From Clostridia bacterium (GTDB taxonomy: Bacteria > Bacillota > Clostridia > Oscillospirales > RGIG8002): a DNA stretch of 64,000 nt. The position numbers and the translations under genes are program-made. Position 1 is the first letter of the stretch; each line of letters starts with the position of its first letter. This document shows, in pieces, positions 2 through 51,299 of this stretch. The stretch lies in the NCBI GenBank assembly GCA_017438525.1, contig JAFRVI010000004.1, forward strand, positions 79,281 through 143,280, in the 5' to 3' direction. Under the pieces are notes generated by a model. The model ran no database searches. It had not been told where the DNA came from and saw only the letters and a list, made by a program, of their open reading frames with translations.

Positions 2-127
2 GGCGAATCCGCATGGGATATTTCAAAGAAATACGGCGCTTCTTTCAGCGAAGTAATATCCGAAAACACGCTTGACGGCGATGAAATAACAACGGCTAAA
101 ATGCTTATTATTCCGTTGAAGAGGTGA
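2..127 (+). CDS. C-terminal fragment of a LysM-domain protein (5' end outside the window)
   Basis: An open frame enters from the window edge and stops at TGA 125-127. The translation ...AWDISKKYGASFSEVISENTLDGDEITTAKMLIIPLKR fits the LysM consensus (W.I..KYG.....l...N.l......G..L.IP). Confidence 0.45.
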   Translation, partial: GESAWDISKKYGASFSEVISENTLDGDEITTAKMLIIPLKR

Positions 128-141
128 AAGGAGTGAATAAG

Positions 142-26144: not shown

Positions 26145-29100
26145 TCAATCGTTCAGACCGGCGGCTTTGCGGAGTATCCGCAGAGCGTCGGAAACCGTTA
26201 TTTCTCCGTCGCCGTCAAGATCGGCGGCGAGACTCTGATAACCCTCCGGCTCTGCAAGCCCTACGGAAATGCGCAGCGCGGCAAGCGCGTCTGCGACGGT
26301 TATCTCCCCATCTTCGTCAAGATCCCCCATCGTGTAAGGAGGAGGCGTAGTGTCGACGACGATAAACCTAACGGTAGTTGAATACTCGTCGTATCCGTTC
26401 ACGACCTTGAGTTCATATTCGCCGGGCTCGGTCACATCGGCTTCTCCGTAGCGGCGCTCGCCGTTGAGATACGCGATATGCCCACAGTTCCAGGACGCGT
26501 GCACCTGATCGGTGTAAAGGTCGTAAATCGCTCCGTTCTCGACGCCGGTAATAACGGGAGCTCCGAGCGGTACGAATTCGAACTTGGTCGGATTGTTTTC
26601 GGCAAACGTCTGCGCATACGAACCCTCAACGCCGTAGAGCTTGACGATCTTTCTGTTTCCGCCGAAAAGCGTTCCGCTTATAGATGTGACGCTCTCGGGG
26701 ATATATACGGATTCCATAAGGTACTGTGTGCCGAGGTTGGCGCTTACGCTCGTCGTGCCTTCTCTTACGATAAGCTCTCTCGCGCGGTAGTTTCCGTTAA
26801 GCGCGGTGGAAGAAAAGGACGTTCCGTTCCCTACCGTCACGGTGCCGACGCCGGTGTTGCGGAACGCGTAAGTATTGACCGAAGTACCGTCAGGAATATC
26901 CGCGGCGCCGAGCAGTCTGCAGTCGTTGAAAGCGTACTGCCCTATCGTTTTAAGCGATGACGGGAACTCTATTTCGCGCAGCGAGCTGCACGCCTGGAAG
27001 GCGTACTGGTCGATCTTAGTAAGCGTATCAGGCAGCTTAACGGTCATATGATGCACGGTTCGGCCGTAGCCGGCAAAAGCGTACTGCCCGATAACCGTGA
27101 CGGGATATCCTTCTATTTCGTTCGGAATGACGACGTCGCGCAAACCGGAGATACAGTCGGTTATCGTGACCTGCTCGTTATTGATAGAATACATAAACTC
27201 ATCGGTCGCTGTTTTCGTCCCGTCGACAGTAAAGTCGGCCGCAGCGAACGACTTTCCCCGCTCCTCGTCAACAAGCTGCACGCGGTAGCTGCCGCCTTCG
27301 GGAATACGAACCCTGATAAAGCGGGTTAACTTCAGATAATTTGCGTCCGCTTCAAGTGAAAGCAGATTATCCTTATCAAGAGGAATTATCACTTCCGTAT
27401 CGTCGTCAAGGTTCTTCACCCTGACGGACGGATGCTCGTAATAAGGCGAGTTGACGGTTTCAAGATATACGTAGCCGTTACGGTTTATGGTAACGGTATC
27501 CGAGAACTCGTGACCGTCCGCCGAAACCCTGATGAAATCGTAAATAACCGTAGGCCTCGGACCGATCGCGGTCATCATTTTGTCTATCATGTGAGGCGTC
27601 GCGTACTTCATGTAGGCAACCTTCGAGGCGATCCTGTAATACGGCGAAGAGGGACTGAGCCGCGCGACCGCCGCCTGCAGAGCGGATTTGTCATACTCCT
27701 TCGGAAGCGCCCACTTCTGCAGCGAATGCGGATAGGTGCGCTCACCGAAGAAAACGTATGAGCTGTCGGGCGTGAATTTGATGCGCGAAACGATATACCC
27801 CTCGAGGTTGGCGTCGGTCTCTCCCGCTTTCAGCGTTTCGAGATACGTGCCGTCGGACGCAAAGAGCTTTGCGCCGCCGTCGTAAGACGCGACGACTATA
27901 TATTTGCCGTTCGGCGAATACGCGGCTTCTCTGATAACGTTGCCGAAGCCGCCGAGCAGCGAAACTAGTTCACCGCTTTCAACGTCGAACAAGCGGGCGG
28001 CGCCATAGGTGGACGTGCAGAGTATATTCTTATCGTCGGGCGAAAACTCGAGGCGTCTTACCGAACCGGTGTTGACGTTGTTGAGTTTCTTTATAAGCGT
28101 CTTGCTCTCGACGTCCCAAAGGCAGACGACTCCGTTATCGTCCGAGGTGGCGAGAAGGCGTCCGTCCGATGAGAAATCCGCGCCGCGGATCGCTCTGACG
28201 TGGCCTTCGGCAAGGTGAGCGTATTCGGTCCAGTCGGCAACGTTGTAGACAAAAGTACCGTTGCTCGTCGTCGTAACCGCGACTTTTGAACCGTCGTCTG
28301 TGATCGCTATGAAGCGCGGGTCGCTGCCAACGTCGATTTCCTGCAGTTTGGCGCCGGTGGTCGCGTTAAAAACGCGGAACTTCCATTTCCCGGTGCCGTT
28401 TGAATACTTCTGGGAGCCGCCGTTAAATCCGCCCACTATCAAGGCGCTGCTGTCTTTAGTGAATACCACGCTCTCCTGAATGACCGCGCCGTTGTATATC
28501 CTGCGCGGCGCCTTTGTGTAATCGGAGGTATCGAAAACCGCGATATTCCCCTGCGTGGATGCGACCGCAAGCTTGCTGCCGTCGGGAGAATAAAGAACGC
28601 GCAGCGCTCTGTCGAATCCGGTGGAAAGCACGTGCTTCGTCACGTTCGTGACCGGATCCATGATATAGACCTTCTTCATGTGGTCGGCGGAAGCGATCTC
28701 GGTGCCGTCGGGCTTGACGTCCGTCGGGAAGTTTATATCCCAGTAATCGTTGACGGCGACTGCGTTGAGACCGGTGGAATAGTTTACGCTTTCATCGGTC
28801 GTGTAGTCCTCGGTGCCGTCGGTCAGCTCGCCCGCTTCAAGGAAGCAGCGGACGTAGTCGACGTCGATGACGTATTCTTTCTCGGCGCCCCAGGATTCGT
28901 CGACCGTATTGCCCCATGAATCTGATGTCCTTGCGCGCGGTGTGTTATTGAAAACAATATATCTGGCGGTATCGCCGAAGGCAAACTTCTTTCCTTCACT
29001 GTTATAAAGAAGCGAATTGTACTGCATTCCGTCGAAGTAGTACCTGATCATATCGCGGTCCATTTCAAGACCGTAGGTGTGGTAATCGTCGCTCAGGTAC

Positions 29101-30854
29101 TTCTCGCCGTATCCGTTGATATTCATATATATAACCTTGGCCCAGTCCTTTTTGCCCTCGTCATCCGTCCAGTGGACGGTGCCGATGACCGTGCCGTTTT
29201 TGGCTATATCATCTTCGACGACCATTTCCATTATGTCGACTTCGCCGGCGCCCATATTCATCATATCGGTCGGCATAAGCCAGAACGCCGGGAACTGACC
29301 AGTGCCGTACGCCAGCTTTGCGCGGATCTCGATCTTGCCGTAGCCGAACGCAAACTTGCCGCTGGTGTTCATATACGTTCCGGACATTTCATAAGCGTCG
29401 TATCTGCCGTATCTGCCCTTGAAATGCATATTGCCGTCGGAAACGTCGATAAGGTCGTCGTCATCCGGATAAATCGCGCCGTCGGAATAACCGTCGTTCA
29501 CGTTCCACTTGGTGCGGTCGAGCGAGTTGCCGTCAAACTCGTCGCTCCAGCTCTGAACGTATTCTTCTTCAACGACTTTATACAGATAGAACTTTTTATA
29601 CGTCGAACTGGTAGTGGCTTTAACGGTTTCACCCGAAACGGTTAACCTTCCGACATTGCGTACCTGAATAGTCGCCTTTCCACCCGTAATGCTGATAGAC
29701 CACTCTTGGCGCGTGTTATTGAGGTTCGGTTCTTTCGCCTCGATACTTGTGCCGGATTCCGAAATCGTAAGCACGTTTGTGCTCGATTTATTGATTATCC
29801 TAAACGCACCGTTGCCGGAGGGAGACATTGAAAGCTGCCACATCTGCGTGCGGTCGCCTTCCCTGTTTTCTTCAAGCGAGTATTTGAGCGAACTGTCTTC
29901 GATCGCGAGAGTATTGTCTCCCCATCTGATAGCCGTTTCAGGAACGGGAGGCCCGAGTGTTATCGCTTTACCCGAGGAAGACTCAATGATTTTATAGTAT
30001 GCGTTATTGACTATCTGACTGCGGGCGGTGATCTGCGTCTCGGAATAAGCGGTCGCCGCGCTGCTTTCGAGTATCTCATTATAAGCGTTCAGATCCGCAA
30101 CCGAAAACGACGTACCGTTCGACTCTATACGGATATAGTTCATGCTGCCGTCCTTCGCGAGCGGCGAATCGCCTGCTGCAGTAAAGATTTCAAACGGGAT
30201 ATAGATATAACCGAATCCCCATACAACAATATCAGAGGCGGTGTAAGTATAGTTATCCTCGGCCGAACGCAGTCCTATTGTAAAGCTGAAAACGTTGCCG
30301 TCATTCGGCGCGAGCCACAGTTTCAGACCATCCGCCTTCGACATATCAAGGCCGAACGGAGACTGACCGGCGACGCCGCTTCTCGACGCGCCGTTGGAAA
30401 GGACGGTCCCGTTTTCATCTCCACTCACCGAGACGGAAAACTCAACGCCTTCCGGCTTATGCTCTTTGTCGAGAACGGGAGCCGAGGAGGACTCGTTCAT
30501 CGAGGCAAGATCCTCGGACGTCCAGCCGTTGAAGCCGTTAAGCTGAATAAGCTCGACGTCATGCATCGGCTCGAGCATATTCTCGGCGTTTTTGACCTCG
30601 TTAAATGCGGCTTCGCGTTCTTCGTCGGTCGCAAGGTCGTTATACGCCGCAAAAGTAGCTTCCCATCTCTCGATGCGGTCGGCGAGGTATTTTCTCGACT
30701 GCTCGCTGTAACCTTTATAAAGAAGGGATCTGGCGTAAGCATATTCGTCGATCGCTTCCGGCTCGTCAGCGCCGACGGTCACCGCCGCCGAAAACGGCAG
30801 CATAGAAAGCGCGAAAGCAAGCGTAAGCAGTATGGCGATGAGTCTTCTTTTCAT
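26145..30854 (-). CDS. Giant secreted multidomain protein, paralogue 1 of 4: ricin-type lectin + GH16 + WD40/PD40 propeller + BspA-type LRR + dockerin
   Basis: 1,569 aa. Signal peptide MKRRLIAILLTLAFALSMLPFSA. Two QxW motifs (QMWQLS, QEWSIS). GH16 elements WSDEFDG...GKIEIRAKL...FPAFWLMP...GEVDIMEM. Propeller repeats YSPDGSKLAVAS, FSSDGRLLATSDDNGVVCLWDV and FSPDDKNIL...ARLFDV. LRR elements IEGYPVTVIGQYAF and LPDTLTKIDQYAFQACSSLREIEFP. The dockerin is at the C-terminus. A GGAGG RBS precedes the start. Confidence 0.85.
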   Translation of the reverse strand: MKRRLIAILLTLAFALSMLPFSAAVTVGADEPEAIDEYAYARSLLYKGYSEQSRKYLADRIERWEATFAAYNDLATDEEREAAFNEVKNAENMLEPMHDVELIQLNGFNGWTSEDLASMNESSSAPVLDKEHKPEGVEFSVSVSGDENGTVLSNGASRSGVAGQSPFGLDMSKADGLKLWLAPNDGNVFSFTIGLRSAEDNYTYTASDIVVWGFGYIYIPFEIFTAAGDSPLAKDGSMNYIRIESNGTSFSVADLNAYNEILESSAATAYSETQITARSQIVNNAYYKIIESSSGKAITLGPPVPETAIRWGDNTLAIEDSSLKYSLEENREGDRTQMWQLSMSPSGNGAFRIINKSSTNVLTISESGTSIEAKEPNLNNTRQEWSISITGGKATIQVRNVGRLTVSGETVKATTSSTYKKFYLYKVVEEEYVQSWSDEFDGNSLDRTKWNVNDGYSDGAIYPDDDDLIDVSDGNMHFKGRYGRYDAYEMSGTYMNTSGKFAFGYGKIEIRAKLAYGTGQFPAFWLMPTDMMNMGAGEVDIMEMVVEDDIAKNGTVIGTVHWTDDEGKKDWAKVIYMNINGYGEKYLSDDYHTYGLEMDRDMIRYYFDGMQYNSLLYNSEGKKFAFGDTARYIVFNNTPRARTSDSWGNTVDESWGAEKEYVIDVDYVRCFLEAGELTDGTEDYTTDESVNYSTGLNAVAVNDYWDINFPTDVKPDGTEIASADHMKKVYIMDPVTNVTKHVLSTGFDRALRVLYSPDGSKLAVASTQGNIAVFDTSDYTKAPRRIYNGAVIQESVVFTKDSSALIVGGFNGGSQKYSNGTGKWKFRVFNATTGAKLQEIDVGSDPRFIAITDDGSKVAVTTTSNGTFVYNVADWTEYAHLAEGHVRAIRGADFSSDGRLLATSDDNGVVCLWDVESKTLIKKLNNVNTGSVRRLEFSPDDKNILCTSTYGAARLFDVESGELVSLLGGFGNVIREAAYSPNGKYIVVASYDGGAKLFASDGTYLETLKAGETDANLEGYIVSRIKFTPDSSYVFFGERTYPHSLQKWALPKEYDKSALQAAVARLSPSSPYYRIASKVAYMKYATPHMIDKMMTAIGPRPTVIYDFIRVSADGHEFSDTVTINRNGYVYLETVNSPYYEHPSVRVKNLDDDTEVIIPLDKDNLLSLEADANYLKLTRFIRVRIPEGGSYRVQLVDEERGKSFAAADFTVDGTKTATDEFMYSINNEQVTITDCISGLRDVVIPNEIEGYPVTVIGQYAFAGYGRTVHHMTVKLPDTLTKIDQYAFQACSSLREIEFPSSLKTIGQYAFNDCRLLGAADIPDGTSVNTYAFRNTGVGTVTVGNGTSFSSTALNGNYRARELIVREGTTSVSANLGTQYLMESVYIPESVTSISGTLFGGNRKIVKLYGVEGSYAQTFAENNPTKFEFVPLGAPVITGVENGAIYDLYTDQVHASWNCGHIAYLNGERRYGEADVTEPGEYELKVVNGYDEYSTTVRFIVVDTTPPPYTMGDLDEDGEITVADALAALRISVGLAEPEGYQSLAADLDGDGEITVSDALRILRKAAGLND
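26148..26333 (-). other. Dockerin module of paralogue 1
   Basis: Two EF-hand-like segments: GDLDEDGEITVADALAALR and ADLDGDGEITVSDALRILR. Confidence 0.8.
26625..27197 (-). other. BspA-type leucine-rich repeat (LRR_5-like) region of paralogue 1 (residues ~1220-1410)
   Basis: Repeating (I/L)P..(V/L)..I...AF..C..L..(I/V) units, for example LPDTLTKIDQYAFQACSSLREIEFPSSLKTIGQYAFNDCRLL. Confidence 0.75.
27705..28757 (-). other. WD40/PD40-type beta-propeller region of paralogue 1 (residues ~700-1050)
   Basis: Seven to eight ~40-45-aa repeats, each with an SPDG/SSDG/TDDG turn followed by a hydrophobic strand and x(F/W)(D/N)V endings. Confidence 0.7.
28839..29567 (-). other. GH16 catalytic module of paralogue 1 (residues ~430-672)
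   Basis: WSDEFDG start. ExDxxE catalytic motif EVDIME is encoded at 29226-29243. The module ends ...YVIDVDYVRCF. Confidence 0.8.
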
Positions 30855-30912: not shown

Positions 30913-33900
30913 TTATTGTTCAAAGGGAGCGTCAATCTTCGCGGCGACGCGAAGGATGCGGAGCACGTCGGAAACTGTCACTTCGCCGTCTTTGTCGACG
31001 TCGGCGGCCTCCGCCTGATAGCCCTCCGGCTCGACGATCCCGAGTGCTATGCGGAGCGCCGTGAGCGCGTCGGTAACCGTGACTTCTCCGTCGTCGTCAA
31101 CATCACCAATAGTGTACGGAGGAGGCGTCGTATCGACGACCGTGAAGGTCACGGTCGTTTTATACTCGTCGTAGCCGTTTATAACTTCGAGCGTGTATTC
31201 GCCGGGCTCGGTCACGTCGGCGTGTCTGTAGCACGCTTCGCCGTTGAGGTATCCGATGTGTCCGTTTTCCCACGTCGCTGAAACGGGCGCTTCATAGAGG
31301 TCGTAGGTCGCGCCGTCTTCGACTCCGTGAACGATGGGAGCGCCTATCGGAACAAATATAAACTTTGTCGGATACGACTCGGCGTAAGTCTGCGCATAGC
31401 TTCCCTCGACGCCGTAGATCTTGGCAAGGTATTTTGTGTGCAGATCGCTTACGTTATTGTCTACAAAACTGTAAATACCGCCGCTTATGGAAGTTACGCT
31501 CTCGGGAATATAAACAGCTTCGAGAAGATACTGAGAAGAAATATTGAGCGAGAGACTTTGTATTCCGTCAGCAACGATTATTTCTCTTACGCGCGACATA
31601 CCGGAAAGAGCGCCGCTTGCGATACCCGATCCGGAGTTGAGCTTTATAGTTCCGACGCCGGCGTTGTTAAAAGCGTTGGAACTGACGGTCGTGCCGGCGG
31701 GAATATCAACGACGCTGAGCAGTCTGCATCTGCTGAAAGCGTACTGTTCTATCTTTTCAAGTCCTGCGGGGAACTTTATCTCGCGCAGAGACCAGCAGTT
31801 ATAGAATGCGTAACTGCCGATAACCTTAAGCGTGTCGGGAAGCGTAACGGCCATATGCATAACGTTGGTTCCGTAGCCGTCGAAAGCATAAGAACCGATC
31901 TTGGTGACCGGGTACCCCTCTATCTCACTCGGAACAACGACGTTGCGCCTTCCGGAGATGCACTTCGTTATCGTGACCTCTCCGTCCTTTATAGAATAGA
32001 GGAATCCTTCCGCGGCGGTAGCGTCACCGTTGACGGCAGCGCTTGCCTTCGGGAACGCCTTGTTGGAATCAAGGCCGACAAGTTCGAACTCGAATACGCC
32101 TGCTTCCGCCATCTTGACCTTGAAATCGTAACGGCAATACGCCTCAATTTCGTCGTTTTCATTATAATCCATAAAGAATCCGGCGTCGTCCGCGGGAATA
32201 AGCTCGCTTGTGCCGTCATCGGTATTCGTAATCTTAAGCGCGAGATCCGCGTATTCCGGAGACGCTCCTGCAGTAACGTAGACGAACGCGTTTTTATTGA
32301 CGGTAACGCTCGGCGGCGTCGTGTATCTGTCGGGAGAAACGCTGATGAATTCGTCGGTCTTCGCCGTTCCGCCGATGCCGGTATACGCCTTGTAGATCAT
32401 CTGCGGAGTAGCATACTTCAAGCCGGCAATCTTCGCGGCGTAAGCGTATTCGGGCGTGGTCTTGTCCGCGCAGTTGCTCATGGCAAGCTTAAGCTGCGTT
32501 TTGTCGTACTGCTTAGGAAGATCCCACTTCTGCACCGCGTACGGATCGGTACGAGTGGTGAACATAACGTAATCGTCCTTATACGGCGAAAACTTGATGC
32601 GGGAAAGAATGAAACCCTCGCCGTTCTCGTCGGTCTCTCCCGCTTTCAGCGTTTCGAGATATGTGCCGTCTGCGGCGAAAAGCTTCGCGCCGCCGTCATA
32701 GGAAGCGACGGCGATATATTTGCCTTCCGTCGAATAGGTCGCCTCGCGGATGACATTGCCGAAGCCGCCGAGCAGCGAGATAAGCTCTCCGCTCTCGACC
32801 TCAAACAGACGCGCGGCGCCGTAGGTCGCGGTCGCGAGGACGTTCTTATCGTCCGGCGAGAAGACTACGCGCCTTACCGAGCCGGAGTTGACGTTGTTGA
32901 GCTTCTTGTTGAGCGAAAGATCGGAAACGTTCCAGACGTTTATGACGCCCTTGTCGTCGGAAGTCACGAGCAGGCTGCCGTCCGAAGAAAAGTCGGCGCC
33001 GCGGATCGCTCCGTCGTGGCCTTCGGTTATATGGCCGTATTCGCTCCAGTCGGAAACGTTATAGATGAACGTGCCGTTGCTTGTTGTAGTTACCGCTACT
33101 TTAGAACCGTCGTCGGAGAGCGCTATGAAGCGCGGATCGCTGCCGACGTCTATATCCTGAAGCTTCGCGCCGCTCGAGGCGTCAAAGACGCGGAAATGCC
33201 ACTTTTCAGTTTTGCCGCCGGTCTGCGGATTCTGATACGCCTGCGAGCCGCCGTTGTAACCGCCGACTATCAGGTATTTACTGTCCGGCGTAAACAGAAC
33301 GTTCTCTTGAATAACGGCGCCGTTATAGATTCTGACCGGCGTGTTATCGTAATTGGAAGTATCATAAATCTGTATGCATCCCTGCGTATTTGCGACAGCG
33401 AGTTTCGTGGCATCCGGCGAATACAGAACGCGGAAGGATCTGGTGTACTTAGACATCGCAGAAGCAAGGTTGATGTATTTGAGTGTTTCTCCGGTATACG
33501 GATCGAATATGTAGAGATTTGAGAAATGATCCGCCGCGGCGCCTTCGTTGCCGTAGCAGTTGATATCCATCGGCATATTGATATCCCACGCGTCGTTGGT
33601 GGCAACGGCCTCTATGCCGGATGAATAGTTGACGCTGTCGTCAGTCGTGAAGTCGACGGTATTATCGCTCATTTCACCGGCTTCAAGATAGCATCTGACG
33701 TAGTCTATCTGGGTTTCGTATTTATCCTCGAGACCCCACGCTTCTCTGACGATGCTTGCGCCGTCGCCTTTGGTGGAGTTATTTATGATGATATATCTTG
33801 CGATATCTCCGAAGGCGAATTCCTTGCCTTCGCTGTTTATCACGAGCGAATTGTACTGCATCCCGTCAAAGTAGAATCTTATCTGATCGCGATCCATCTC

Positions 33901-35691
33901 CACGCCATAGGTGTGGAATTCATCGCTGAGATACTTTTCTCCGTAACCGTAGATACCCATATAATGGACTTTTGACCAGTGAGTATATCCGTCGTCGGTA
34001 GTCCAGTGTATCGTGCCGATCTGCGTGCCGTTTTCCCTGATATCATCCGTGACGACGATCTCCATAATATCGATCTCGCCGCCGCCCATATTCATCATAT
34101 CGGTCGGCATCATCCAGAACGCTGGGAACTGACCGTTGCCGTAAGCAAGCTTTGCGCGTATCTCGACCTTGCCGTAACTCAAAGCGAACCTGCCGCTGGT
34201 GCTCATATAAGTGCCCTGCATTTCAAAAGCGCCGTATCTGTCAGGTGTGACGGTCATATTCAGCATACCGTCCGAAACCTTGAGCTGCTCGTCGTCATCG
34301 GTGTGCATAGTTGAAACTGTTCCGCCGAACCAGAAGCCGTCATCAACGGACCACTTATTGCGGTCGAGCTCATCGCCGTCGAATTCGTCGCTCCAGCTCT
34401 GAACGTATTCGGTTTCCACCGTCTCATAAAGCTCAAACTTTTTGTACGCGGACCCTGTTGTTGCCTTTACGGTGTCCCCGGCGGTGGTAAGCTTGCCGAC
34501 GTTACGCACTTGTATAGTAGCTTTGCCGCCGGAAATGCTTATTGACCACTCTTGAAGGGTATTGTTGAGATTCGGCTCTTTCGCTTCAATGCTGCCTCCG
34601 GATCCGGAGATGGTGAGCGTGTTCGTACTCGACTTATTGATAAACCTGAAGGTTCCGTTGCCGGACGGAGACGGCGAAAGCTGCCACATCTGAGTGCGGT
34701 CGCCTTCCCTGTTTTCCTGAAGGGAATACTTGAGATTACTGTCTTCAATGGCAAGAGTATTATCCCATCTTATCGCAGTTTCAGCGACCTCCGGTCCGAG
34801 CGTAATGGCCTTGCCGCTCGTGGGCTCGATTATTTTATAATAAGCGTTGTTGTTGATCTGATTGCGTGAAACGACCTTCGTTTCGGAATAAGCCGTGCGG
34901 GTGCTGCCTTCGATGATCTCATTGTAGGCGTTGAGATCCGCAAATCTGAAAGAGTCAACGCCTACTGCACGGATAGACAGCATATTCAAACTGCCGTCCT
35001 TGATAATGCTATCGCCTTTGAAGCAGTCAAAAGGAACGTGGATATATCCGGTTTCCGCAACGTAAACATCTTCTGCCGTTGAAAAACTGACGCCGTCGTA
35101 GGAAAGGTATCCGAGCACAATAGTCAGTGTCGCGGGCGCATCGACAGAAACCCAAAGCTTCAATCCGTCCGCCTTAGTCATATCCTTCCCGAATGGCGAA
35201 GCCGTGTGCATGGCGTTAATATCGGGCGTTTCATTCGAGAAGAAGGCGCTGCCGTCACTTCCGGGAACAGATATCGAGAAAGCGGCTTCTGCAGGTTTAT
35301 TTACAGCGTCAATGACCGGGACGCCGCTGCAAGCCGTCATCATAGAAAGCGCTGCTTCGTCCCAGACATCGATCCCGTCGAGCGCAATCTGCTCATAGGC
35401 ATACATCTGCGCAAGCGAATCGACCGCAAAGCGAAGCGCTTCACTCGCGGCGGCAACGTCGTCTTCAGTCGCATAATCGTTATATACGACTGCTTCCGCA
35501 CGCTGCACACGGTCGGCAAGATATTTGCGCGACTGCTCGCCGTAGCCCTTGTAGATAAGCGCTTTTGCGCTCATCACCTGCTCCTGAAGCTCCGAAGTGT
35601 CAATAGCTTTAGCTGAAATGACGCCCGAAAGAGTCGCAAGTGACATAAGAAGGGTTAGAGTAAGGATAATCGCTATAAGCTTTCTTTTCAT
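30913..35691 (-). CDS. Giant secreted multidomain protein, paralogue 2 of 4 (same architecture)
   Basis: Collinear with paralogue 1. GH16 motif EIDIME is at 34060-34077 and the dockerin at 30916-31110. ATG 35691 with a GGAGGG RBS is preferred over the TTG at 35709. Confidence 0.85.
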   Translation of the reverse strand: MKRKLIAIILTLTLLMSLATLSGVISAKAIDTSELQEQVMSAKALIYKGYGEQSRKYLADRVQRAEAVVYNDYATEDDVAAASEALRFAVDSLAQMYAYEQIALDGIDVWDEAALSMMTACSGVPVIDAVNKPAEAAFSISVPGSDGSAFFSNETPDINAMHTASPFGKDMTKADGLKLWVSVDAPATLTIVLGYLSYDGVSFSTAEDVYVAETGYIHVPFDCFKGDSIIKDGSLNMLSIRAVGVDSFRFADLNAYNEIIEGSTRTAYSETKVVSRNQINNNAYYKIIEPTSGKAITLGPEVAETAIRWDNTLAIEDSNLKYSLQENREGDRTQMWQLSPSPSGNGTFRFINKSSTNTLTISGSGGSIEAKEPNLNNTLQEWSISISGGKATIQVRNVGKLTTAGDTVKATTGSAYKKFELYETVETEYVQSWSDEFDGDELDRNKWSVDDGFWFGGTVSTMHTDDDEQLKVSDGMLNMTVTPDRYGAFEMQGTYMSTSGRFALSYGKVEIRAKLAYGNGQFPAFWMMPTDMMNMGGGEIDIMEIVVTDDIRENGTQIGTIHWTTDDGYTHWSKVHYMGIYGYGEKYLSDEFHTYGVEMDRDQIRFYFDGMQYNSLVINSEGKEFAFGDIARYIIINNSTKGDGASIVREAWGLEDKYETQIDYVRCYLEAGEMSDNTVDFTTDDSVNYSSGIEAVATNDAWDINMPMDINCYGNEGAAADHFSNLYIFDPYTGETLKYINLASAMSKYTRSFRVLYSPDATKLAVANTQGCIQIYDTSNYDNTPVRIYNGAVIQENVLFTPDSKYLIVGGYNGGSQAYQNPQTGGKTEKWHFRVFDASSGAKLQDIDVGSDPRFIALSDDGSKVAVTTTSNGTFIYNVSDWSEYGHITEGHDGAIRGADFSSDGSLLVTSDDKGVINVWNVSDLSLNKKLNNVNSGSVRRVVFSPDDKNVLATATYGAARLFEVESGELISLLGGFGNVIREATYSTEGKYIAVASYDGGAKLFAADGTYLETLKAGETDENGEGFILSRIKFSPYKDDYVMFTTRTDPYAVQKWDLPKQYDKTQLKLAMSNCADKTTPEYAYAAKIAGLKYATPQMIYKAYTGIGGTAKTDEFISVSPDRYTTPPSVTVNKNAFVYVTAGASPEYADLALKITNTDDGTSELIPADDAGFFMDYNENDEIEAYCRYDFKVKMAEAGVFEFELVGLDSNKAFPKASAAVNGDATAAEGFLYSIKDGEVTITKCISGRRNVVVPSEIEGYPVTKIGSYAFDGYGTNVMHMAVTLPDTLKVIGSYAFYNCWSLREIKFPAGLEKIEQYAFSRCRLLSVVDIPAGTTVSSNAFNNAGVGTIKLNSGSGIASGALSGMSRVREIIVADGIQSLSLNISSQYLLEAVYIPESVTSISGGIYSFVDNNVSDLHTKYLAKIYGVEGSYAQTYAESYPTKFIFVPIGAPIVHGVEDGATYDLYEAPVSATWENGHIGYLNGEACYRHADVTEPGEYTLEVINGYDEYKTTVTFTVVDTTPPPYTIGDVDDDGEVTVTDALTALRIALGIVEPEGYQAEAADVDKDGEVTVSDVLRILRVAAKIDAPFEQ

Positions 35692-35750
35692 AATCGTCCC
35701 TCCGTTCAAAGCGTTGAGAATAATTAAATGATAGTACTTAATTATAGGGT

Positions 35751-38700
35751 TTATCTGTTTGCTATGCCCGCGGCAATTCGCAGAATCCTCAAAGCGTCGG
35801 AAACTGTCACGGCACCGTCGCCGTCAACGTCGGCAACGGCGAGCGCATCTCCTTCCGGTTGATCGGCAAGACCGACAGCCATACGGAGTGCGGCAAGAGC
35901 GTCCGCAACGGTAACTTCATCGTCGCCGTCTATGTCACCGATGAGCACGTAGGCGATTATCGTGACGTCAAAGGTGTCGGTGAATCCGTTATAGGTAACA
36001 GTCAGTGTCTGCGATCCTACGACGGTGTTATCAAAGCCATCGACCATTTCAGCCGTGAGATCGACTTCTTCGGATGAACCGTTATCGTAAGTGACCGTTA
36101 CCTTTCCGCCGGACAGGTCGAGCTCTTCCCTGCCCTCAACGTATTCTACCTTTTCGGGCGCGGTAACTTCGATGCCGGTGATCTGCGGCATTGCGGTCAA
36201 TTTGAAATCGCCGATGAGCGGATAGTGATCGGACGTTCCCTGGAGGTCAGCGTCGGTCACGCGCGCGGTGAAAAGGCATTCGGTGCCTACGGTGTGGAAG
36301 ATGTGGTCGACAACGCCGGGATCCGGATGATCGTCGGCGTCGACAAATACTCCGCTGTTCACGATAGTATTATAAGGAATATCGCCGGCCGGGCAGTTCA
36401 TATCACCGGTGGAAATGAAGGGGCAGTTCCACCGGTTGATATATTCTCTCGCCTTAACGACGAGCTCACCCGCCTGAATGTTTCTTTGCTCGGTGTGATC
36501 GTCGTCGTCCCAGCCCGGATCGAGGTGCGTAGAGCTGACTATGAATCTTCTGCCGTCGCTGATGCGCTCGAAAACGCCGATGTCGATAAGGCGGAATCTC
36601 GGGCTGTTGCCTATCGTGTAGGAATAGACTTCGCTCGCGATAACGCGGAGCTTGGTCTTGTCATATATAATCGGGCTGCAGTTCATACCTGCCTGACCGC
36701 CGAAATCGGGGTTGAGGAACTCGTAGGTATCGCTGAGCAGACGGTTGATGCCCTCGTGCCACTTCTCGGAGCATTCCTGCAGACCGACGACGTCGGGCTT
36801 GTAGTAATCGATAAACGCCTTGAACTTCTCAGGTCTTTCGCCGATCACCCAGGGGCTCCAACTGAAGTCTTCCTGTGCAACGAGCACATTGAAAGATACT
36901 ATTCTGATATCGGCGCCTTCAACGAGCTGCTCGGGGTATTCGCCGAAATAACCGCTGCCGTCTCTGTGAATGATCTCAACGTCGTCGATATATATGGCGC
37001 TGCCGTCGGGGGAGCTGCCCGCGGAGAAGTTGACGTACCAGTCGGAATAGTCGCCGCTGTTGAATGCGATGGCATAGCGTCTCCATTCGTCAGTCAACGC
37101 TATCGAATTGGAACAAAGCTTCTCCTTGTCGCCGAAAACGTAGCTGTGATACTGCTTCGTTCCGCCGGCTTCGGAGTCCCACTTCGCCCAGAAGATCAAG
37201 ATGTATTCGGTGTTCTTTGTGAGAATCAGACCGGTCTGCTTGGCAACGCTCTGATAGTAGCTGCTGCCCATTAGGCGAAGCGAATGTCCGCCTTCGTGAG
37301 CAACGTCGCTGAGAGCGGTCGTGCCGCCGGTGGTCCAGGGAGAGTATCCGTTCTCTTCAAATCCGCCGTTTCTAATAAGTATCTCGTCGGGCTTCTCTTC
37401 AAGTACGACGTCATCGATTATCATACCGGCTCCGTCGGGCGAGCTGGAGGCGGAGAAGTTGATATAGCAGGAAGTAACGTCGCCGCTGTTAAATGAAATT
37501 GTGTGGAAAGTCCACTCAGAAGGTATCGCTATGTACTCGCTCACGATCTTGGTTCCGCCCGCGTCATAAACTCCGGCGTGGTATCCCTTCGAGCCCTGGG
37601 CGGTCTGATCGCCCTTCGCCCAGAAGGAAAGGATATAATCGGTGTTCGGCTTTATGGTGATGCCGCTCTGCCTTGCGGCTTTAGCATATGAACCCGTAGC
37701 GAGAAGGCAAAGCGCCTTTTCGCCCGAATGAGCGTCCACGGTGACTGCGGTGTTCTCGTAAAGCGTCCAGGGGTCTACGGTCGCGGCTTCAAAGTTGCCG
37801 TTCTTAACAAGCGTTGTGTCTGCAGAAACTTCCATAGCAAAATCATCAACTACCACGGCGCTGCCGTCGGGCGAGCTGCCGGCTGAAAAATGGATGTAAC
37901 ACTCGGTAAAGTCACCGCTGTTGAATCTGACGGTATAGAGTGTCCAATCATTAGTGATATCTATCGTCTTGTCGGTAAACTTGTTATCCTGTCCGGAGCT
38001 TCCGCCGAAAACGTAGGCGTGATATGGCTTTGCTCCGGTGCTGGTCTCGGCGGCTTTTGCCCAGAAGGTGTAAACATAATCGGTATTCGGCTCAATCTTC
38101 AATCCCATCTGCCTGGCAACCTTCGCATAATAAGATGAGCCGGAGAGGATCAGCGCCTTGCTTCCGGTATGAGCGTCGGAAGTTATCGCGCTGCCGTTGA
38201 AGATTTCCCACGGGTCGATGGCGGCGTTCTCAAAACCGCCGTTTTTGATTATAGCTGCATCGACAACGACCTTCTCTTCCATAAACAGATCATCGATGAC
38301 GATAGCAGTGCCGTCCGGCGAGCTGCCGGTCGAGAAATTGATATAGCAGGAAGTAAAATCTCCGCTGTTGAACTCAATGGTATACTGCCTCCATTCAGCA
38401 GTGGGAGAGAAAGAATTATCAGCAAGCTTGTTGCTGCTGTTGCCGAAAACGTAGGCGTGGTAGCCCTTCGTACCGGTGTTGTCGGAAGCCGCCTTCGCCC
38501 AGAAAGTGAATGTGTAGTCCGTATTTGCATTAAGGGCGATGCCTTCTTGCCTTGCAACCTTTGTGTAGTTGCCGGATCCGGCAGGCACCTTCAGGCAGAG
38601 CGCTTTGCTTCCCTCGTGCGCTTCGGTAGTGAGCGCGGTTTCGGAATAAATGAGCCACGGATCGATGGTGGCGTTCTCAAAACCGCCGTTCTTAATCATC

Positions 38701-39698
38701 GCGTCGTCAACGACGACCTTCTCTTCCATAAACAGATCGTCTATGATAAGCGCGGTGCCGTCGGGCGAGCTGCCGGTCGAGAAGTTTATGAAGCAGGAAG
38801 TGAAATCGCCGCTGTTGAACTCAATGGTGTACTGCATCCACTCGGTAGTTACGGCGATGGAGTTCTGCGCAAGTCTGTTGCTGCTGTCGCCGAAAACGTA
38901 GGCGTGATAGCCCTTCGTTCCGGTGTTGTCGGAAGCCGCCTTCGCCCAGAAGGTGAAAACGTAGTCCTTATTCGCCTCGATAGCTATGCCGTTCTGTCTG
39001 GCGACCTTGGTGTAGTTCGCGGAGCCGGCGGGAGCTTTAAGGCAGAGCGCCTTGGCGCCCTCGTGCGCTTCCGCAGTGAGCGCGGTTTCGGAATAAACGA
39101 GCCACGGATCGATGGTGGCGTTCTCGAAGCCGCCGTTCTTGATCATGGCGGTGTCGGGATCCTCGACCTTCTGCATAACGAGGTCGTCAATAACGGCGAT
39201 ACCGCCGTCCGGCGCGCTGGGAGTGGATATATTGATATAGCACTCGGTAAAATCGCCGCTGTTGAAATCGACCGTGTATTCTCTCCAATCGGAGGTAAGG
39301 CCGAAATAAACGGTTCCTATCTTGGTAGCGCCGCTTTTATCCATAATATACATATGGAAACCCTTGGAAGCGCCCTGGGCGGAATTCGACGCGACCTTCG
39401 CCCAGAAGGTAAAGGTGTAATCCTTATTCGCCTCAAGAGCGATACCGGTCTGTCTGGCTACCTTTTCGTATTTGTTTGAGCCGAAAAGACTCAACGCGTT
39501 GCTGCCGGTATGCGCTTCGGTAGACAGCGTCGTGCCGGAATAGATGAGCCATCCGTCCGTGCCGTCTTCAAAACCGCCGTTGACGATAAGGTTATCGCCG
39601 GTGGTCTTCGCCGCCGCAGGCAGCGACACGGCGCAAAGCGTTGCGATCATAGTGAACGCAATAAGCGCCGCAAGGATTCTTTTGATGCCGGTTTTCAT
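35751..39698 (-). CDS. Secreted protein: six tandem CBM4/9-like modules + EEP catalytic domain (copy 2) + Ig-like (Big_3-like) module + dockerin
   Basis: 1,315 aa with a signal peptide. It carries six ~145-150-aa units, each starting (I/V)(K/R/V)NGGFE...W and ending SSPDG....IDD. EEP motifs are VSFNVL, GLQEC, STGDMN and SDHYPL (36198-36947). The Ig-like module is ITGIEVTAPEKVEYVEG..LDLSGGKVTVTY (35955-36185). The dockerin is at 35754-35945. Confidence 0.85.
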   Translation of the reverse strand: MKTGIKRILAALIAFTMIATLCAVSLPAAAKTTGDNLIVNGGFEDGTDGWLIYSGTTLSTEAHTGSNALSLFGSNKYEKVARQTGIALEANKDYTFTFWAKVASNSAQGASKGFHMYIMDKSGATKIGTVYFGLTSDWREYTVDFNSGDFTECYINISTPSAPDGGIAVIDDLVMQKVEDPDTAMIKNGGFENATIDPWLVYSETALTAEAHEGAKALCLKAPAGSANYTKVARQNGIAIEANKDYVFTFWAKAASDNTGTKGYHAYVFGDSSNRLAQNSIAVTTEWMQYTIEFNSGDFTSCFINFSTGSSPDGTALIIDDLFMEEKVVVDDAMIKNGGFENATIDPWLIYSETALTTEAHEGSKALCLKVPAGSGNYTKVARQEGIALNANTDYTFTFWAKAASDNTGTKGYHAYVFGNSSNKLADNSFSPTAEWRQYTIEFNSGDFTSCYINFSTGSSPDGTAIVIDDLFMEEKVVVDAAIIKNGGFENAAIDPWEIFNGSAITSDAHTGSKALILSGSSYYAKVARQMGLKIEPNTDYVYTFWAKAAETSTGAKPYHAYVFGGSSGQDNKFTDKTIDITNDWTLYTVRFNSGDFTECYIHFSAGSSPDGSAVVVDDFAMEVSADTTLVKNGNFEAATVDPWTLYENTAVTVDAHSGEKALCLLATGSYAKAARQSGITIKPNTDYILSFWAKGDQTAQGSKGYHAGVYDAGGTKIVSEYIAIPSEWTFHTISFNSGDVTSCYINFSASSSPDGAGMIIDDVVLEEKPDEILIRNGGFEENGYSPWTTGGTTALSDVAHEGGHSLRLMGSSYYQSVAKQTGLILTKNTEYILIFWAKWDSEAGGTKQYHSYVFGDKEKLCSNSIALTDEWRRYAIAFNSGDYSDWYVNFSAGSSPDGSAIYIDDVEIIHRDGSGYFGEYPEQLVEGADIRIVSFNVLVAQEDFSWSPWVIGERPEKFKAFIDYYKPDVVGLQECSEKWHEGINRLLSDTYEFLNPDFGGQAGMNCSPIIYDKTKLRVIASEVYSYTIGNSPRFRLIDIGVFERISDGRRFIVSSTHLDPGWDDDDHTEQRNIQAGELVVKAREYINRWNCPFISTGDMNCPAGDIPYNTIVNSGVFVDADDHPDPGVVDHIFHTVGTECLFTARVTDADLQGTSDHYPLIGDFKLTAMPQITGIEVTAPEKVEYVEGREELDLSGGKVTVTYDNGSSEEVDLTAEMVDGFDNTVVGSQTLTVTYNGFTDTFDVTIIAYVLIGDIDGDDEVTVADALAALRMAVGLADQPEGDALAVADVDGDGAVTVSDALRILRIAAGIANR
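36960..39602 (-). repeat. Six tandem in-frame coding repeats (~430-450 bp each) encoding CBM4/9-like modules
   Basis: Repeat boundaries from the translation: residues 33-182, 183-331, 332-480, 481-627, 628-770 and 771-913. Units 2 and 3 are nearly identical at protein level and share long identical DNA stretches. Confidence 0.9.
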
Positions 39699-40594: not shown

Positions 40595-41716
40595 TTACTT
40601 CTTCGAGTAGAGATAGAGCAAACCGGCCGCAAGAGCAAGACCGATAAGGACCGCGATAGCGACACGCAGCGCGGATACCGGCGACTTTCCGCCGACCTTT
40701 CCGGTTTCGCCGTTGACCATGAATTGAAATATCTTCTCTTTAAATTTGAACGAAGAAAGCCATACGGGCAGCAACAGGTATTTATACTTAATATCGAAAT
40801 ACTTAGTCGCCATTCTGACGTTGTTGACGTGATCGGCGTGGTGCGCTCTGCGGACTTGATCAGTAATATCGGATTCAAGGCGGGAGGAAATGAAACCTTT
40901 TCCCTTCTCCCACGCGTCGTTGAGCCCGATGGAATAGCGCTCGGAAATGAATCCCGCTATGTATTCGGGCTTGTACTTCTTATTATTCGCGGTATCATAC
41001 GGCTCGATCGAACGAAGCGTCGCCTCGTTATAACGCGTGGTGCCGCAGACGGCCTGATCGTCTATGAAGCAGGAATAATGCCCGGAGGTGTTGTACCACG
41101 TCGTGGTTGTGTGAGTATTTCCGTTGCTGTCTGTGTATGTGTGGTCAATGCCGTAGCGGGCGGTATAGTCCGTCTCGGTCTGTGAATCGAACGTCCAGTA
41201 AGGCAGATAAACGCCTTTGAAAGATTCGGGTCGGGCGCTCTGCTTCGCTTTTGACGGGCAGAAAAGCTTTTTCTTGATCCACGCGGTGAATCTTTCGCCT
41301 GCGGTCTTCGCGTCGATCCTGAAGGGGCAAACGCCGCCCGGGGCAAGCGTGTTGACCGCGGCCTCCTCCATAACCTGATTCGAGCCGCAGTAGGGGCATA
41401 CGTCAGCTATCTGCAGCGCGTCGTAAATCGATTCGCCGCCGCAGGATTTGCAGATGACGGTCTTCTTCTCGACGCCCCAGTCGCAGTTTCCCCTTTCGGC
41501 CGCCGAGTAGAAATCCTGCTCCATGCAGCGTTCCTCGTTCGACTCATGAGGCGGTATCGCCTGCTGATGCCCGCAGTACGGACAAAGCAGTCCGCCGGAA
41601 ACCGGATCGAAATCCATAACGCCGCCGCAGGACGGACACTTCTTGTCCGTCTCTTCCCTCGTTGTCGTTTGCTGGATCACTTCGACTTCATTGTTGTACT
41701 CGTTAACGTCGCTCAC
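40595..41716 (-). CDS. Tail-anchored protein with two N-terminal zinc ribbons (function unknown)
   Basis: CPSCGG...CPYCG and CKSCGG...CPYCG motifs. A single C-terminal TM helix (AIAVLIGLALAAGLLYLY) lies 3 residues from the end. I prefer GTG 41716, 8 nt after GGAGG. The ORF-track start is the TTG at 41743. Confidence 0.65.
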   Translation of the reverse strand: MSDVNEYNNEVEVIQQTTTREETDKKCPSCGGVMDFDPVSGGLLCPYCGHQQAIPPHESNEERCMEQDFYSAAERGNCDWGVEKKTVICKSCGGESIYDALQIADVCPYCGSNQVMEEAAVNTLAPGGVCPFRIDAKTAGERFTAWIKKKLFCPSKAKQSARPESFKGVYLPYWTFDSQTETDYTARYGIDHTYTDSNGNTHTTTTWYNTSGHYSCFIDDQAVCGTTRYNEATLRSIEPYDTANNKKYKPEYIAGFISERYSIGLNDAWEKGKGFISSRLESDITDQVRRAHHADHVNNVRMATKYFDIKYKYLLLPVWLSSFKFKEKIFQFMVNGETGKVGGKSPVSALRVAIAVLIGLALAAGLLYLYSKK

Positions 41717-41757
41717 TTGGTGTTCCTCCAGACTATTTTTCAAATATTATTTATAAA

Positions 41758-51243: not shown

Positions 51244-51299
51244 ATCAGTCACCCCGTTAAATCAGTCTTTCAATCCGTTCGGTTAAAGCGGAAAAAGAA

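Follow-up and report, generated by a model that had tools for sequence, protein, structure and literature searches.

The window, i.e., the whole stretch of 64,000 nucleotides analysed here, harbours four paralogous genes arranged in tandem, each with a propeller region. Paralogue 1 (P1; 26145..30854, minus strand), delimited from the list of open reading frames (ORFs), its translation and its Pfam domains, encodes a protein of 1569 aa. The segment of interest, 27705-28757, is coding on the minus strand within this ORF and corresponds to residues ~700-1050 of P1; its minus-strand translation is open and includes all five peptides quoted in the original prediction, relative to which the strand is here corrected to minus. 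A reading of the same segment on the plus strand is ruled out by its many stop codons. In the other paralogues, the linker and propeller lie, always on the minus strand, at 32500..33705 in P2 (ORF 30913-35709, 1598 aa), at 43291..44481 in P3 (ORF 41758-46500, 1580 aa) and at 48076..49266 in P4 (ORF 46555-51252, 1565 aa), as recognised from Pfam matches and from 70, 47 and 45% identity to P1, respectively. As such, the equivalent region expected in all four paralogues is indeed there.

The four proteins share the same order of domains, namely (i) a signal peptide, (ii) an unknown beta domain, (iii) a ricin-type lectin, (iv) a catalytic domain of glycoside hydrolase (GH) family 16, (v) the propeller, (vi) helices, (vii) a variable beta domain, (viii) a BspA-type leucine-rich repeat (LRR) module, (ix) an Ig-like module, and (x) a type I dockerin. 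The signal peptide of P1 (MKRRLIAILLTLAFALSMLPFSAAVTVGA; 30768..30854, minus strand), read directly from the sequence, displays a basic n-region, a hydrophobic core of ~15 residues and small residues ahead of the cleavage site. Judged by the same reading, all four paralogues possess a typical N-terminal signal peptide, and from this N-terminus, as read by eye, the proteins are predicted to be secreted. In P1, the unknown region following the signal peptide comprises helical and beta domains and is succeeded by the ricin-type beta-trefoil lectin segment (aa ~336-410; 29625..29849, minus strand; PF14200, 36.8 bits for a cut-off of 25.6). Downstream of the propeller comes a three-helix segment without Pfam match (aa ~1057-1097; 27564..27686, minus strand), which was delineated in the two-domain AlphaFold2 model described below (H633-641, H649-657 and H663-673 in the numbering of that second model, with pLDDT of 73-84). 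The BspA-type LRR module (aa ~1216-1428; 26571..27209, minus strand) matches LRR_5 (PF13306) with 71.2 bits in P1 and 71-119 bits across the paralogues, for a cut-off of 27.7. While the propeller was correctly placed between the GH16 domain and the LRR, the latter is not its immediate neighbour but is set off by the helical segment of ~45 residues and a poorly conserved beta domain of ~115 residues. At the C-terminus, the type I dockerin of P1 (aa ~1504-1569; 26148..26345, minus strand) contains two Ca-binding segments, DLDEDGEITVAD and DLDGDGEITVSD; Dockerin_1 (PF00404) scores 30.0, 35.3, 33.4 and 30.8 bits in P1-P4 for a cut-off of 22.9, and duplicated DxDxDGxITxxD segments are seen in the dockerins of the four paralogues. 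No cohesin was found among the annotated ORFs of the window. The context originally described for the propeller, i.e., an N-terminal signal peptide (as read by eye), a C-terminal type I dockerin and a position directly C-terminal to GH16, holds in 4 out of 4 paralogues.

The propeller itself is readily recognised from its sequence. The WD40 model (PF00400) scores 58.9, 45.2, 84.1 and 80.4 bits in P1-P4, respectively, for a gathering cut-off of 27, and dozens of further propeller models of the WD40 clan match residues ~720-1050. When compared with PDB sequences by phmmer, the region retrieves 2ymu, a WD40 protein of Nostoc, at 9e-61 and PkwA at 3.5e-33. In terms of sequence similarity, these matches lie far beyond chance. 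The full GH...WD signature is present in P1 in blade 5 only (GHVRAIRGADFSSDGRLLATSDDNGVVCLWD); in the other blades, the SPDG-type turn between strands a and b is present and GH or WD is missing, such degenerate repeats being frequent in WD40 and PD40-like propellers. As for PD40 in the strict sense, PF07676 is listed for P4 alone, with 33.6 bits over the whole protein for a cut-off of 20.9 and no single stretch that passes. On Pfam scores, the WD40 models far outscore PF07676, and "PD40-like" is a description of the SPDG turns, not a family assignment.

Structure prediction concurs. The AlphaFold2 model of residues 666-1056 of P1 (mean pLDDT 85.6, pTM 0.86) has residues 711-1049 folded into 31 strands, i.e., seven four-stranded blades and a three-stranded eighth, the innermost (a) strands starting at aa 711, 750, 792, 846, 889, 935, 974 and 1022. 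A long insertion (GGFNGGSQ...) extends the b-c loop of blade 3. In blade 8, the three strands come from the C-terminal end, and the closing strand may be supplied by the acidic linker that precedes the propeller; the candidate, at aa 691-693, has a pLDDT of ~52 in the propeller-only model and ~80 in the two-domain model. Hidden Markov models and structure prediction thus both return a propeller, and the WD40/PD40-type propeller originally proposed is borne out by Pfam, PDB sequence matches and AlphaFold2, though with eight predicted blades instead of the five that had been listed. Taken together, region 27705-28757 is almost certainly an eight-bladed WD40-type beta-propeller (P1 aa 711-1049; 27708..28724, minus strand, from Pfam, PDB sequence search, AlphaFold2, Foldseek and the blade map) within a secreted dockerin-bearing GH16 architecture.

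By sequence, the closest solved structures are 2ymu from Nostoc punctiforme and PkwA (5yzv) from Thermomonospora curvata, with which the propeller shares the WD40 repeat type and the common SPDG turns between strands a and b. 2ymu consists of two seven-bladed propellers and PkwA has seven blades, both being tied to cytoplasmic signalling. Unlike them, the propeller described here has eight predicted blades made of mostly degenerate repeats and forms part of a secreted Firmicute glycoside hydrolase. By fold, the best Foldseek TM-scores were obtained with ODA16/DAW1 (5mzh; TMq 0.77), Rsa4/NLE1 (4wjs), Fbw7 (2ovr) and the designed protein Tako8 (6y7o), within a range of TMq 0.72-0.77, rmsd 2.2-3.6 A and ~350 columns. 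Tako8 is called eight-bladed in its PDB title, and ODA16, Rsa4 and Fbw7 are eight-bladed as well, so that these four proteins have the blade number in common with the propeller, with a sequence identity of just 15-16%. ODA16, Rsa4 and Fbw7 work inside the cell as adaptors, in dynein transport, in ribosome assembly and for ubiquitin ligase substrates, respectively; the likeness to such eukaryotic eight-bladed propellers is one of fold alone and implies no shared function.

Propellers are also encountered among carbohydrate-active proteins, where the number of blades is five in GH32/43/62/68, six in sialidases, seven in GH74 and eight in PL11. The proviso that the region could belong to a carbohydrate-active propeller family with a defined function found no match, since the best 50 Foldseek matches in the PDB to the propeller model were all WD40 proteins and Pfam gave WD40-clan models throughout the propeller, except for one sub-threshold RIG-propeller match in P2. 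As far as Pfam and these best 50 Foldseek matches extend, there was no likeness of sequence or fold to GH32/43/62/68, sialidase, GH74, PL11, tachylectin-, AAL- or PVL-type propellers.

Upstream of the propeller, the GH16 catalytic domain (P1 aa ~430-672; 28839..29567, minus strand) is laminarinase-like, as indicated by PF00722 (43.9 bits in P1 and 41-46 bits in the four paralogues for a cut-off of 22), by invariant alignment columns and by its PDB and Foldseek relatives. The catalytic motif E538-x-D540-x-x-E543 (ExDxxE) is invariant in 4 out of 4 paralogues. The best sequence relatives in the PDB are the laminarinases 3azx (6.6e-19), 4dfs, 4crq and 8xph, and the GH16 half of the two-domain model falls on 4dfs, 8xph and 6xof in Foldseek. 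From these sequence relationships, the host enzyme is probably an endo-beta-1,3(4)-glucanase. With the Thermotoga laminarinase (3azx/4dfs) and ZgLamC of Zobellia (4crq), it shares a catalytic domain of the same type (1e-15 to 1e-19) and an intact ExDxxE motif. To our knowledge, the accessory modules of these GH16 laminarinases are beta-sandwich carbohydrate-binding modules (CBMs), e.g., CBM4 and CBM6, and none is a WD40 propeller.

Between the two domains, the acidic linker (P1 aa 673-710, ~38 residues; 28725..28838, minus strand), located from AlphaFold2 pLDDT and strand positions, rises in pLDDT from 39-56 in the propeller-only model to 58-88 in the model comprising GH16, propeller and helices. 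The latter model (676 aa) reaches a pTM of 0.83, a value out of reach for independently placed domains because the larger domain accounts for only 52% of the length. GH16 and propeller are thereby predicted as one rigid body, in a single AlphaFold2 run with 29 sequences. No PDB chain spans both halves of this model, the best TMq being 0.46 in Foldseek. The succession of GH16 then propeller was present in every member of the family found (24 clusters, 42-95% identity). In the most distant relatives, P0413 and P0414, with 27% identity in the propeller, the arrangement ricin/GH16-propeller-dockerin is kept and the LRR is absent; in P0413, the N-terminal beta domain occurs a second time at the place of the LRR. 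Since LRR-less relatives retain GH16-propeller-dockerin and the two-domain model is rigid, the propeller is assigned to the GH16 domain and not to the LRR, a coupling we regard as reasonably likely; the second binding platform alongside the LRR suggested originally fits these observations less well.

Over 12 members of the family, the proportion of invariant positions amounts to 26% in the propeller, 27% in GH16, 26% in the LRR and 4% in the neighbouring beta domain. Conservation of the propeller thus equals that of the catalytic domain and LRR and far exceeds that of the beta domain, which at the sequence level suggests functional constraint. When two clades are compared, 29% of the loop positions are conserved in both, 16% are clade-specific and ~4% vary freely in both. 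With top and bottom faces assigned by canonical WD40 topology rather than measured on the model, invariance within the 12-member family is 27% in top loops, 40% in bottom loops and 20% in strands. Across the 26 sequences of the extended family, only 3 out of 93 top-loop positions are invariant, namely G908, G969 and F970, as are A953 and R954, where strand c of blade 6 begins. R954 and F970 belong to a conserved surface patch on blades 6/7. The positions conserved over this widest set are mostly structural, i.e., the SPDG turns between strands a and b and glycines. Clade-specific positions make up 16% of the top loops and 10% of the positions elsewhere (p = 0.13), a weak and non-significant enrichment. 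The loops predicted to lie on the top face are polar, with a fair number of aromatic residues, e.g., Y817, W824, Y950, the invariant F970 and Y1041, with W824 replaced by His and Y950 by Asp in the P3/P4 clade. The conserved top-face pocket that was to be sought in the paralogues and their homologues did not emerge convincingly, no deeply conserved one being found in the 12-member family, in the 26-sequence extended family or in the comparison of clades.

The family was seen in only a few genomes and metagenomes of ruminant-gut Clostridia. It was recovered with a full-length query, as domain-sized queries gave proteins of up to ~1.75 times the query length and missed multidomain relatives. Intact orthologues of the same architecture occur in independent metagenome-assembled genomes (MAGs) from yak, goat and water buffalo as well as in metagenome assemblies. 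An assembly chimera or a pseudogene is ruled out by these independent intact copies. In a profile search of 1.84 billion representatives, giant multi-WD40 proteins dominated, and the matches to the whole profile in a single stretch were P0121, P0123 and P0129 only. The four tandem paralogues belong to a conserved gene cluster, and their host is an uncultured, spore-forming lineage of rumen Clostridia. Of note, the cluster also encodes proteins with an EEP domain (endonuclease/exonuclease/phosphatase family), one of which is without dockerin match; their similarity to nocturnin and TDP2 is remote and uninformative on function. A 6xCBM4_9 protein is likewise among the secreted products of the cluster.

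The general statement that WD40 propellers are mostly intracellular, from which the original prediction started, reflects a eukaryote-centred view. Among the 99 nearest generic bacterial WD40 matches starting with Met, 46 have signal-peptide-like N-termini according to a crude heuristic, and export alone is therefore no surprise. The rarity of the present case lies in the phylum, i.e., the Firmicutes, and in the fusion partners, not in export. A survey of 2017 counted 5 WD40 proteins in 364 species of Firmicutes (PMC5587647). Full-text searches of the literature found no description of a protein in which a WD40 propeller accompanies a dockerin or GH16; the combination of domains is undescribed and very narrowly distributed. 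In its general organisation, the protein resembles other dockerin-bearing (cellulosome-type) proteins known from Clostridia of the gut and rumen, both modular enzymes and adhesins, LRR-dockerin proteins among them; these likewise combine a signal peptide with catalytic and binding modules and have a type I dockerin at the C-terminus. Extracellular propellers along with dockerins have been reported in giant proteins of gut Clostridia of the family Oscillospiraceae (bioRxiv 10.1101/2023.11.21.568195), but those are of RCC1 type whereas the present one is of WD40 type.

With respect to its role, we infer that the propeller would have no catalytic function of its own and serve as an accessory module to GH16, not to the LRR. 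GH16, ordered linker and propeller would make up one rigid head, the free propeller faces of which could offer a platform for docking or positioning. The catalytic cleft would thereby be kept in place on its target, either a partner molecule or a surface that contains beta-glucan, with ricin lectin, LRR and dockerin potentially giving further attachment. This docking mechanism is put forward tentatively and may well be wrong; considered as a whole, the account of a secreted dockerin-bearing GH16 enzyme with the propeller as a GH16-coupled docking head is the best explanation at hand, and about as apt to hold as to fail. The propeller could alternatively be an independent platform for protein binding or adhesion alongside the LRR and bear no special relation to GH16, recruiting a secreted protein, e.g., a neighbouring EEP-domain protein, or binding a protein of a target cell. 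Binding of peptides and proteins is a classical task of WD40 top faces, a BspA-type LRR is present in the same protein, and the EEP-domain protein without dockerin match could need recruiting. Such a platform appears unlikely nonetheless, as the LRR-less relatives still pair the propeller with GH16, the helical segment and the least conserved domain (4% invariant) separate it from the LRR, AlphaFold2 packs it rigidly on GH16, and conservation of the top face does not extend across subfamilies.

The same rigid packing, together with the conserved place beside GH16 and the polar, aromatic-rich loops of the predicted top face, would also suit a WD40-fold CBM that recognises a cell-wall glycan, such as beta-1,3 or mixed-linkage glucan, and passes it on to the GH16 cleft. 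We know of no CBM or lectin family with a WD40 fold, however, and neither a lectin nor a CAZyme propeller appears in the best 50 Foldseek matches; besides, two of the aromatic residues (W824 and Y950) become His and Asp in the P3/P4 clade, the deeply conserved pocket is missing, and the ricin-type lectin and other beta domains are already available for glycan binding, which leaves this possibility rather improbable. The failure to find a top-face pocket, the predicted rigidity and the predominance of SPDG turns and glycines among the most widely conserved positions are what a purely structural module would leave behind, i.e., a rigid spacer or stabiliser comparable to the Ig-like, Fn3 and "X" modules of cellulosomal enzymes, which would buttress GH16 and project it from the cell surface while binding no ligand. 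A propeller of 340 residues would be costly for a spacer, though, its conservation is on par with that of the catalytic domain, and the constraint on surface loops within each clade suggests that the surfaces matter, so that a mere spacer is also unlikely. By analogy with prolyl oligopeptidase and DPP-IV-type enzymes, where a propeller serves as lid, the module might finally gate the GH16 cleft so that only chain ends or oligosaccharides could enter, turning endo- into exo- or processive action. The sole points in favour of such a lid are the predicted rigid packing and blades that resemble PD40 in their SPDG turns; GH16 laminarinases are open-cleft endo-enzymes, and no glycoside hydrolase with a propeller lid is known to us, making this by far the most improbable of the readings considered.

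The site and mode of action of modular dockerin-bearing glycoside hydrolases are largely set by their accessory modules. As far as we know, the established carbohydrate-binding and "X" modules all have beta-sandwich, beta-trefoil or similar small folds. What stands out here is that the pairing of GH16 and propeller persists in paralogues diverged to 27-45% identity, with a rigid packing predicted by the model. The host lineage is itself unusual, the Firmicutes being nearly devoid of WD40 proteins (PMC5587647). If the propeller were a mere spacer, the finding would amount to an oddity of domain shuffling among rumen Clostridia. At the other extreme, and with little likelihood, it could be the first WD40-fold module working within a glycoside hydrolase, either as a WD40-type CBM or as a lid shaping access to the GH16 cleft, recruited into a Firmicute for extracellular attack on polysaccharides in the rumen. 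The family being small, intact and well defined, the question is directly testable, and a WD40 propeller kept beside a laminarinase would widen both the known tasks of WD40 propellers and the range of accessory modules of glycoside hydrolases.

The stretch at 27705-28757 is an open frame on the minus strand, whose translation contains all the peptides quoted in the original prediction; the plus-strand reading was rejected, having stops throughout. It corresponds to residues ~700-1050 of P1 (ORF 26145-30854, minus strand, 1569 aa), one of four large paralogues, all co-directional, the others being P2 (30913-35709), P3 (41758-46500) and P4 (46555-51252), likewise delineated on the minus strand by ORF and translation. 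Aligned over their full length, P2, P3 and P4 share 61, 43 and 42% identity with P1, respectively. The mechanical ORF starts of P2 and P4 are TTG (35692-35709, minus strand) and GTG (51241-51252, minus strand); an in-frame Met lies a few codons downstream (MKRKL in P2, MVKKT in P4), and from the translated N-termini these Met codons are the likelier true starts, giving normal signal peptides.

The WD40-type propeller originally proposed is borne out by Pfam profiles, sequence searches and a predicted structure. PF00400 (WD40) scores 58.9, 45.2, 84.1 and 80.4 bits in P1 to P4, i.e., above the 27-bit cut-off in all four, dozens of further WD40-clan propeller models in Pfam match residues ~720-1050, and phmmer against all PDB sequences retrieves the Nostoc WD40 protein 2ymu (9e-61) and the Thermomonospora PkwA (3.5e-33). 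The AlphaFold2 model of P1 residues 666-1056, built on a 47-sequence alignment (mean pLDDT 85.6, pTM 0.86), shows the region to be an eight-bladed WD40-type propeller: DSSP assigns to this predicted model 31 strands over residues 711-1049, forming seven four-stranded blades and a three-stranded eighth, with innermost (a) strands starting at 711, 750, 792, 846, 889, 935, 974 and 1022. In the model, linker residues 691-693 may, with some uncertainty, supply the fourth strand of blade 8. The best superposition found by Foldseek in the PDB is ODA16 (TMq 0.77, rmsd 2.2 A), other top ones being Rsa4, Fbw7 and the designed Tako8; the last is named eight-bladed in its PDB title, and the first three are eight-bladed as well. 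The full GH...WD signature occurs in blade 5 only, the remaining P1 blades being degenerate with PD40-like SPDG turns.

Read from its domains, the host protein P1 proves to be a modular laminarinase-type enzyme with a signal peptide and a dockerin. The signal peptide, read at the N-terminus, is followed by a helical stretch and a beta domain of ~170 residues without Pfam match (30045-30557, minus strand, aa ~100-270; motif SPFGxDMxxxDGLxxW), which is probably an undescribed binding module, then by a ricin-type lectin (PF14200) and the GH16 domain (PF00722), in which E538-x-D540-x-x-E543 is invariant and whose nearest solved relatives are the laminarinases 3azx (6.6e-19), 4dfs, 4crq and 8xph. 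An acidic linker of ~38 residues leads to the propeller, C-terminal to which come three helices, a poorly conserved beta domain of ~115 residues, the BspA-type LRR (PF13306, 71-119 bits in Pfam), an Ig-like module and a type I dockerin (PF00404, above the Pfam cut-off in four of four paralogues). The propeller was rightly placed between a glycoside hydrolase and an LRR as regards order, but only the GH16 abuts it, the LRR does not. No other part of the protein is as conserved as the Ig-like module (26346-26570, minus strand, aa ~1429-1503), which is 39% invariant across 12 members and may be an X-module acting jointly with the dockerin; it is also present in two distant relatives returned by the full-length search, namely P0413 (1491 aa, from a ruminant metagenome) and P0414 (1393 aa, from a Logan assembly).

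P0413 and P0414 have in common the signal peptide, beta domain, ricin lectin, GH16, eight-blade propeller and dockerin, their propellers being alignable at 27% identity. The LRR is absent from both, and in P0413 the N-terminal beta domain recurs in its place (aa ~1080-1270, C-terminal to the propeller; 30% identity, E 2e-14). That the propeller works next to the LRR as a protein-binding platform in its own right, as first envisaged, appears unlikely. A second AlphaFold2 run, covering P1 425-1100 (GH16, linker, propeller and helices) with 29 paired family sequences, gave a pLDDT of 81.8 and a pTM of 0.83; since the propeller makes up only ~52% of this chain, such a pTM indicates that the inter-domain arrangement is confidently fixed in the model. 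The linker, at pLDDT 39-56 when the propeller is modelled alone, reaches 58-88 with the GH16 included. No PDB chain spans both the GH16 and propeller halves (best TMq 0.46) and structural precedent is therefore absent. From these relatives and this model, we infer that the propeller belongs as an accessory module to the GH16 domain, not to the LRR: GH16 and propeller would form a rigid head, in which the free propeller faces would offer a platform that docks or positions the catalytic cleft on its target.

Over 12 full-length members, invariant positions amount to 26% in the propeller, 27% in the GH16, 26% in the LRR and 4% in the beta domain after the helices. With propeller faces assigned by canonical WD40 topology (b-c and d-a loops as top), 27% of top-loop, 40% of bottom-loop and 20% of strand positions are invariant. 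The search for a conserved top-face pocket, suggested in the original prediction, turned up little: in a set of 26 sequences to which P0413 and P0414 belong, invariance among the 93 top-loop positions is limited to three (G908, G969 and F970), and A953 and R954, where strand c of blade 6 begins, are invariant too. This leaves a small patch spanning blades 6 and 7 rather than a deeply conserved pocket. Positions fixed differently between the P1/P2 and P3/P4 clades represent 16% of top loops vs 10% elsewhere (p = 0.13). Loop positions free to vary in both clades are only ~4%, so that the propeller surface is under constraint in either clade and has no hypervariable region; a role as pure structural spacer is given just as little credence as the independent platform, and that of a gating lid hardly any. 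A WD40-fold carbohydrate-binding module is slightly less probable than the spacer. No glycoside-hydrolase, lyase or lectin propeller is present among the top 50 Foldseek PDB matches of the P1 model. The two outcomes named in the original prediction as counting against it, a fold other than a propeller and a match to a known carbohydrate-active propeller family, were thus both looked for by HMM and structure prediction and not found.

The distribution of the GH16-propeller family is very narrow. A pattern scan covering one genome per species (185,579 species) found it in three MAGs only, all ruminant and labelled 'Clostridia bacterium', namely from yak (RGIG10334), goat (RGIG3742) and water buffalo (RGIG8183); in each of the latter two, the four paralogues are all present as tandem pairs, and in the yak MAG the family is known only from a 1.8-kb contig with a P1 fragment. 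A metagenome scan gave two family loci, its other matches being generic WD40 at <=31% identity, save one short 38% segment. Among 1.84 billion cluster representatives, the whole propeller profile was matched in one stretch by three proteins, all within the GH16-propeller architecture, the profile-search match P0129 being a fragment starting at the propeller. The full-length query returned 24 clusters that share this domain content at 42-95% identity, among them exact copies of P2 and P3 in an NCBI MAG, named there only 'leucine-rich repeat protein'. SpoIVA, encoded in the window (124-1620, plus strand, 375 bits), shows the bacterium to be an endospore-forming member of the Firmicutes; this matters here, since few WD40 proteins are known in that phylum, with only 5 in 364 species in a systematic survey (PMC5587647).

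The paralogues belong to a co-directional cluster of ~35 kb (24083-59625, minus strand, loci L002-L009) in the order Cgs, DUF4886, P4, P3, Zn-ribbon ORF, EEP (endonuclease/exonuclease/phosphatase family) protein, 6xCBM4_9+EEP+Big_3+dockerin protein, P2, P1, EEP+dockerin protein and Lgt, an order shared with the MAGs from goat and water buffalo as well as with two metagenome contigs; beta-1,2-glucan synthesis, the phosphodiesterase-like EEP proteins and the GH16 enzymes may be functionally linked. Heading the same cluster as the four GH16-propeller genes, the Cgs/NdvB homologue (cyclic beta-1,2-glucan synthase, 2467 aa; 52222-59625, minus strand) matches the Agrobacterium structures 8rf0 and 8rf9 (E = 0, 1088 bits) and bears GH94 and glucoamylase-like domains in Pfam. 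Between P2 and P3 sits a secreted protein of 1315 aa (35751-39698, minus strand) with six CBM4_9, EEP, Big_3 and dockerin domains in Pfam, an EEP enzyme with six glucan-type CBMs being an odd combination. The 382-aa ORF (40595-41743, minus strand), with weak zinc-ribbon matches only and not assigned to any family, is nevertheless ~88% conserved in related MAGs at the same place between P3 and the EEP gene.

The export of a WD40 protein is less unusual than first claimed: signal-peptide-like N-termini occur in 46 of the 99 nearest generic WD40 matches starting with Met, a low count as the crude heuristic missed several further obvious signal peptides. What is unusual in the P1 family is the phylum, the GH16 fusion and the dockerin. 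Full-text literature searches retrieved no description of WD40 with GH16 or dockerin in one protein; gut Clostridia do have giant proteins for which extracellular propellers and dockerins are reported (bioRxiv 10.1101/2023.11.21.568195), but those propellers are of RCC1 type whereas the ones of P1-P4 are of WD40 type. The P1 family represents a dockerin-bearing modular enzyme whose accessory fold is without precedent, and the function of the GH16-propeller pair is directly testable.
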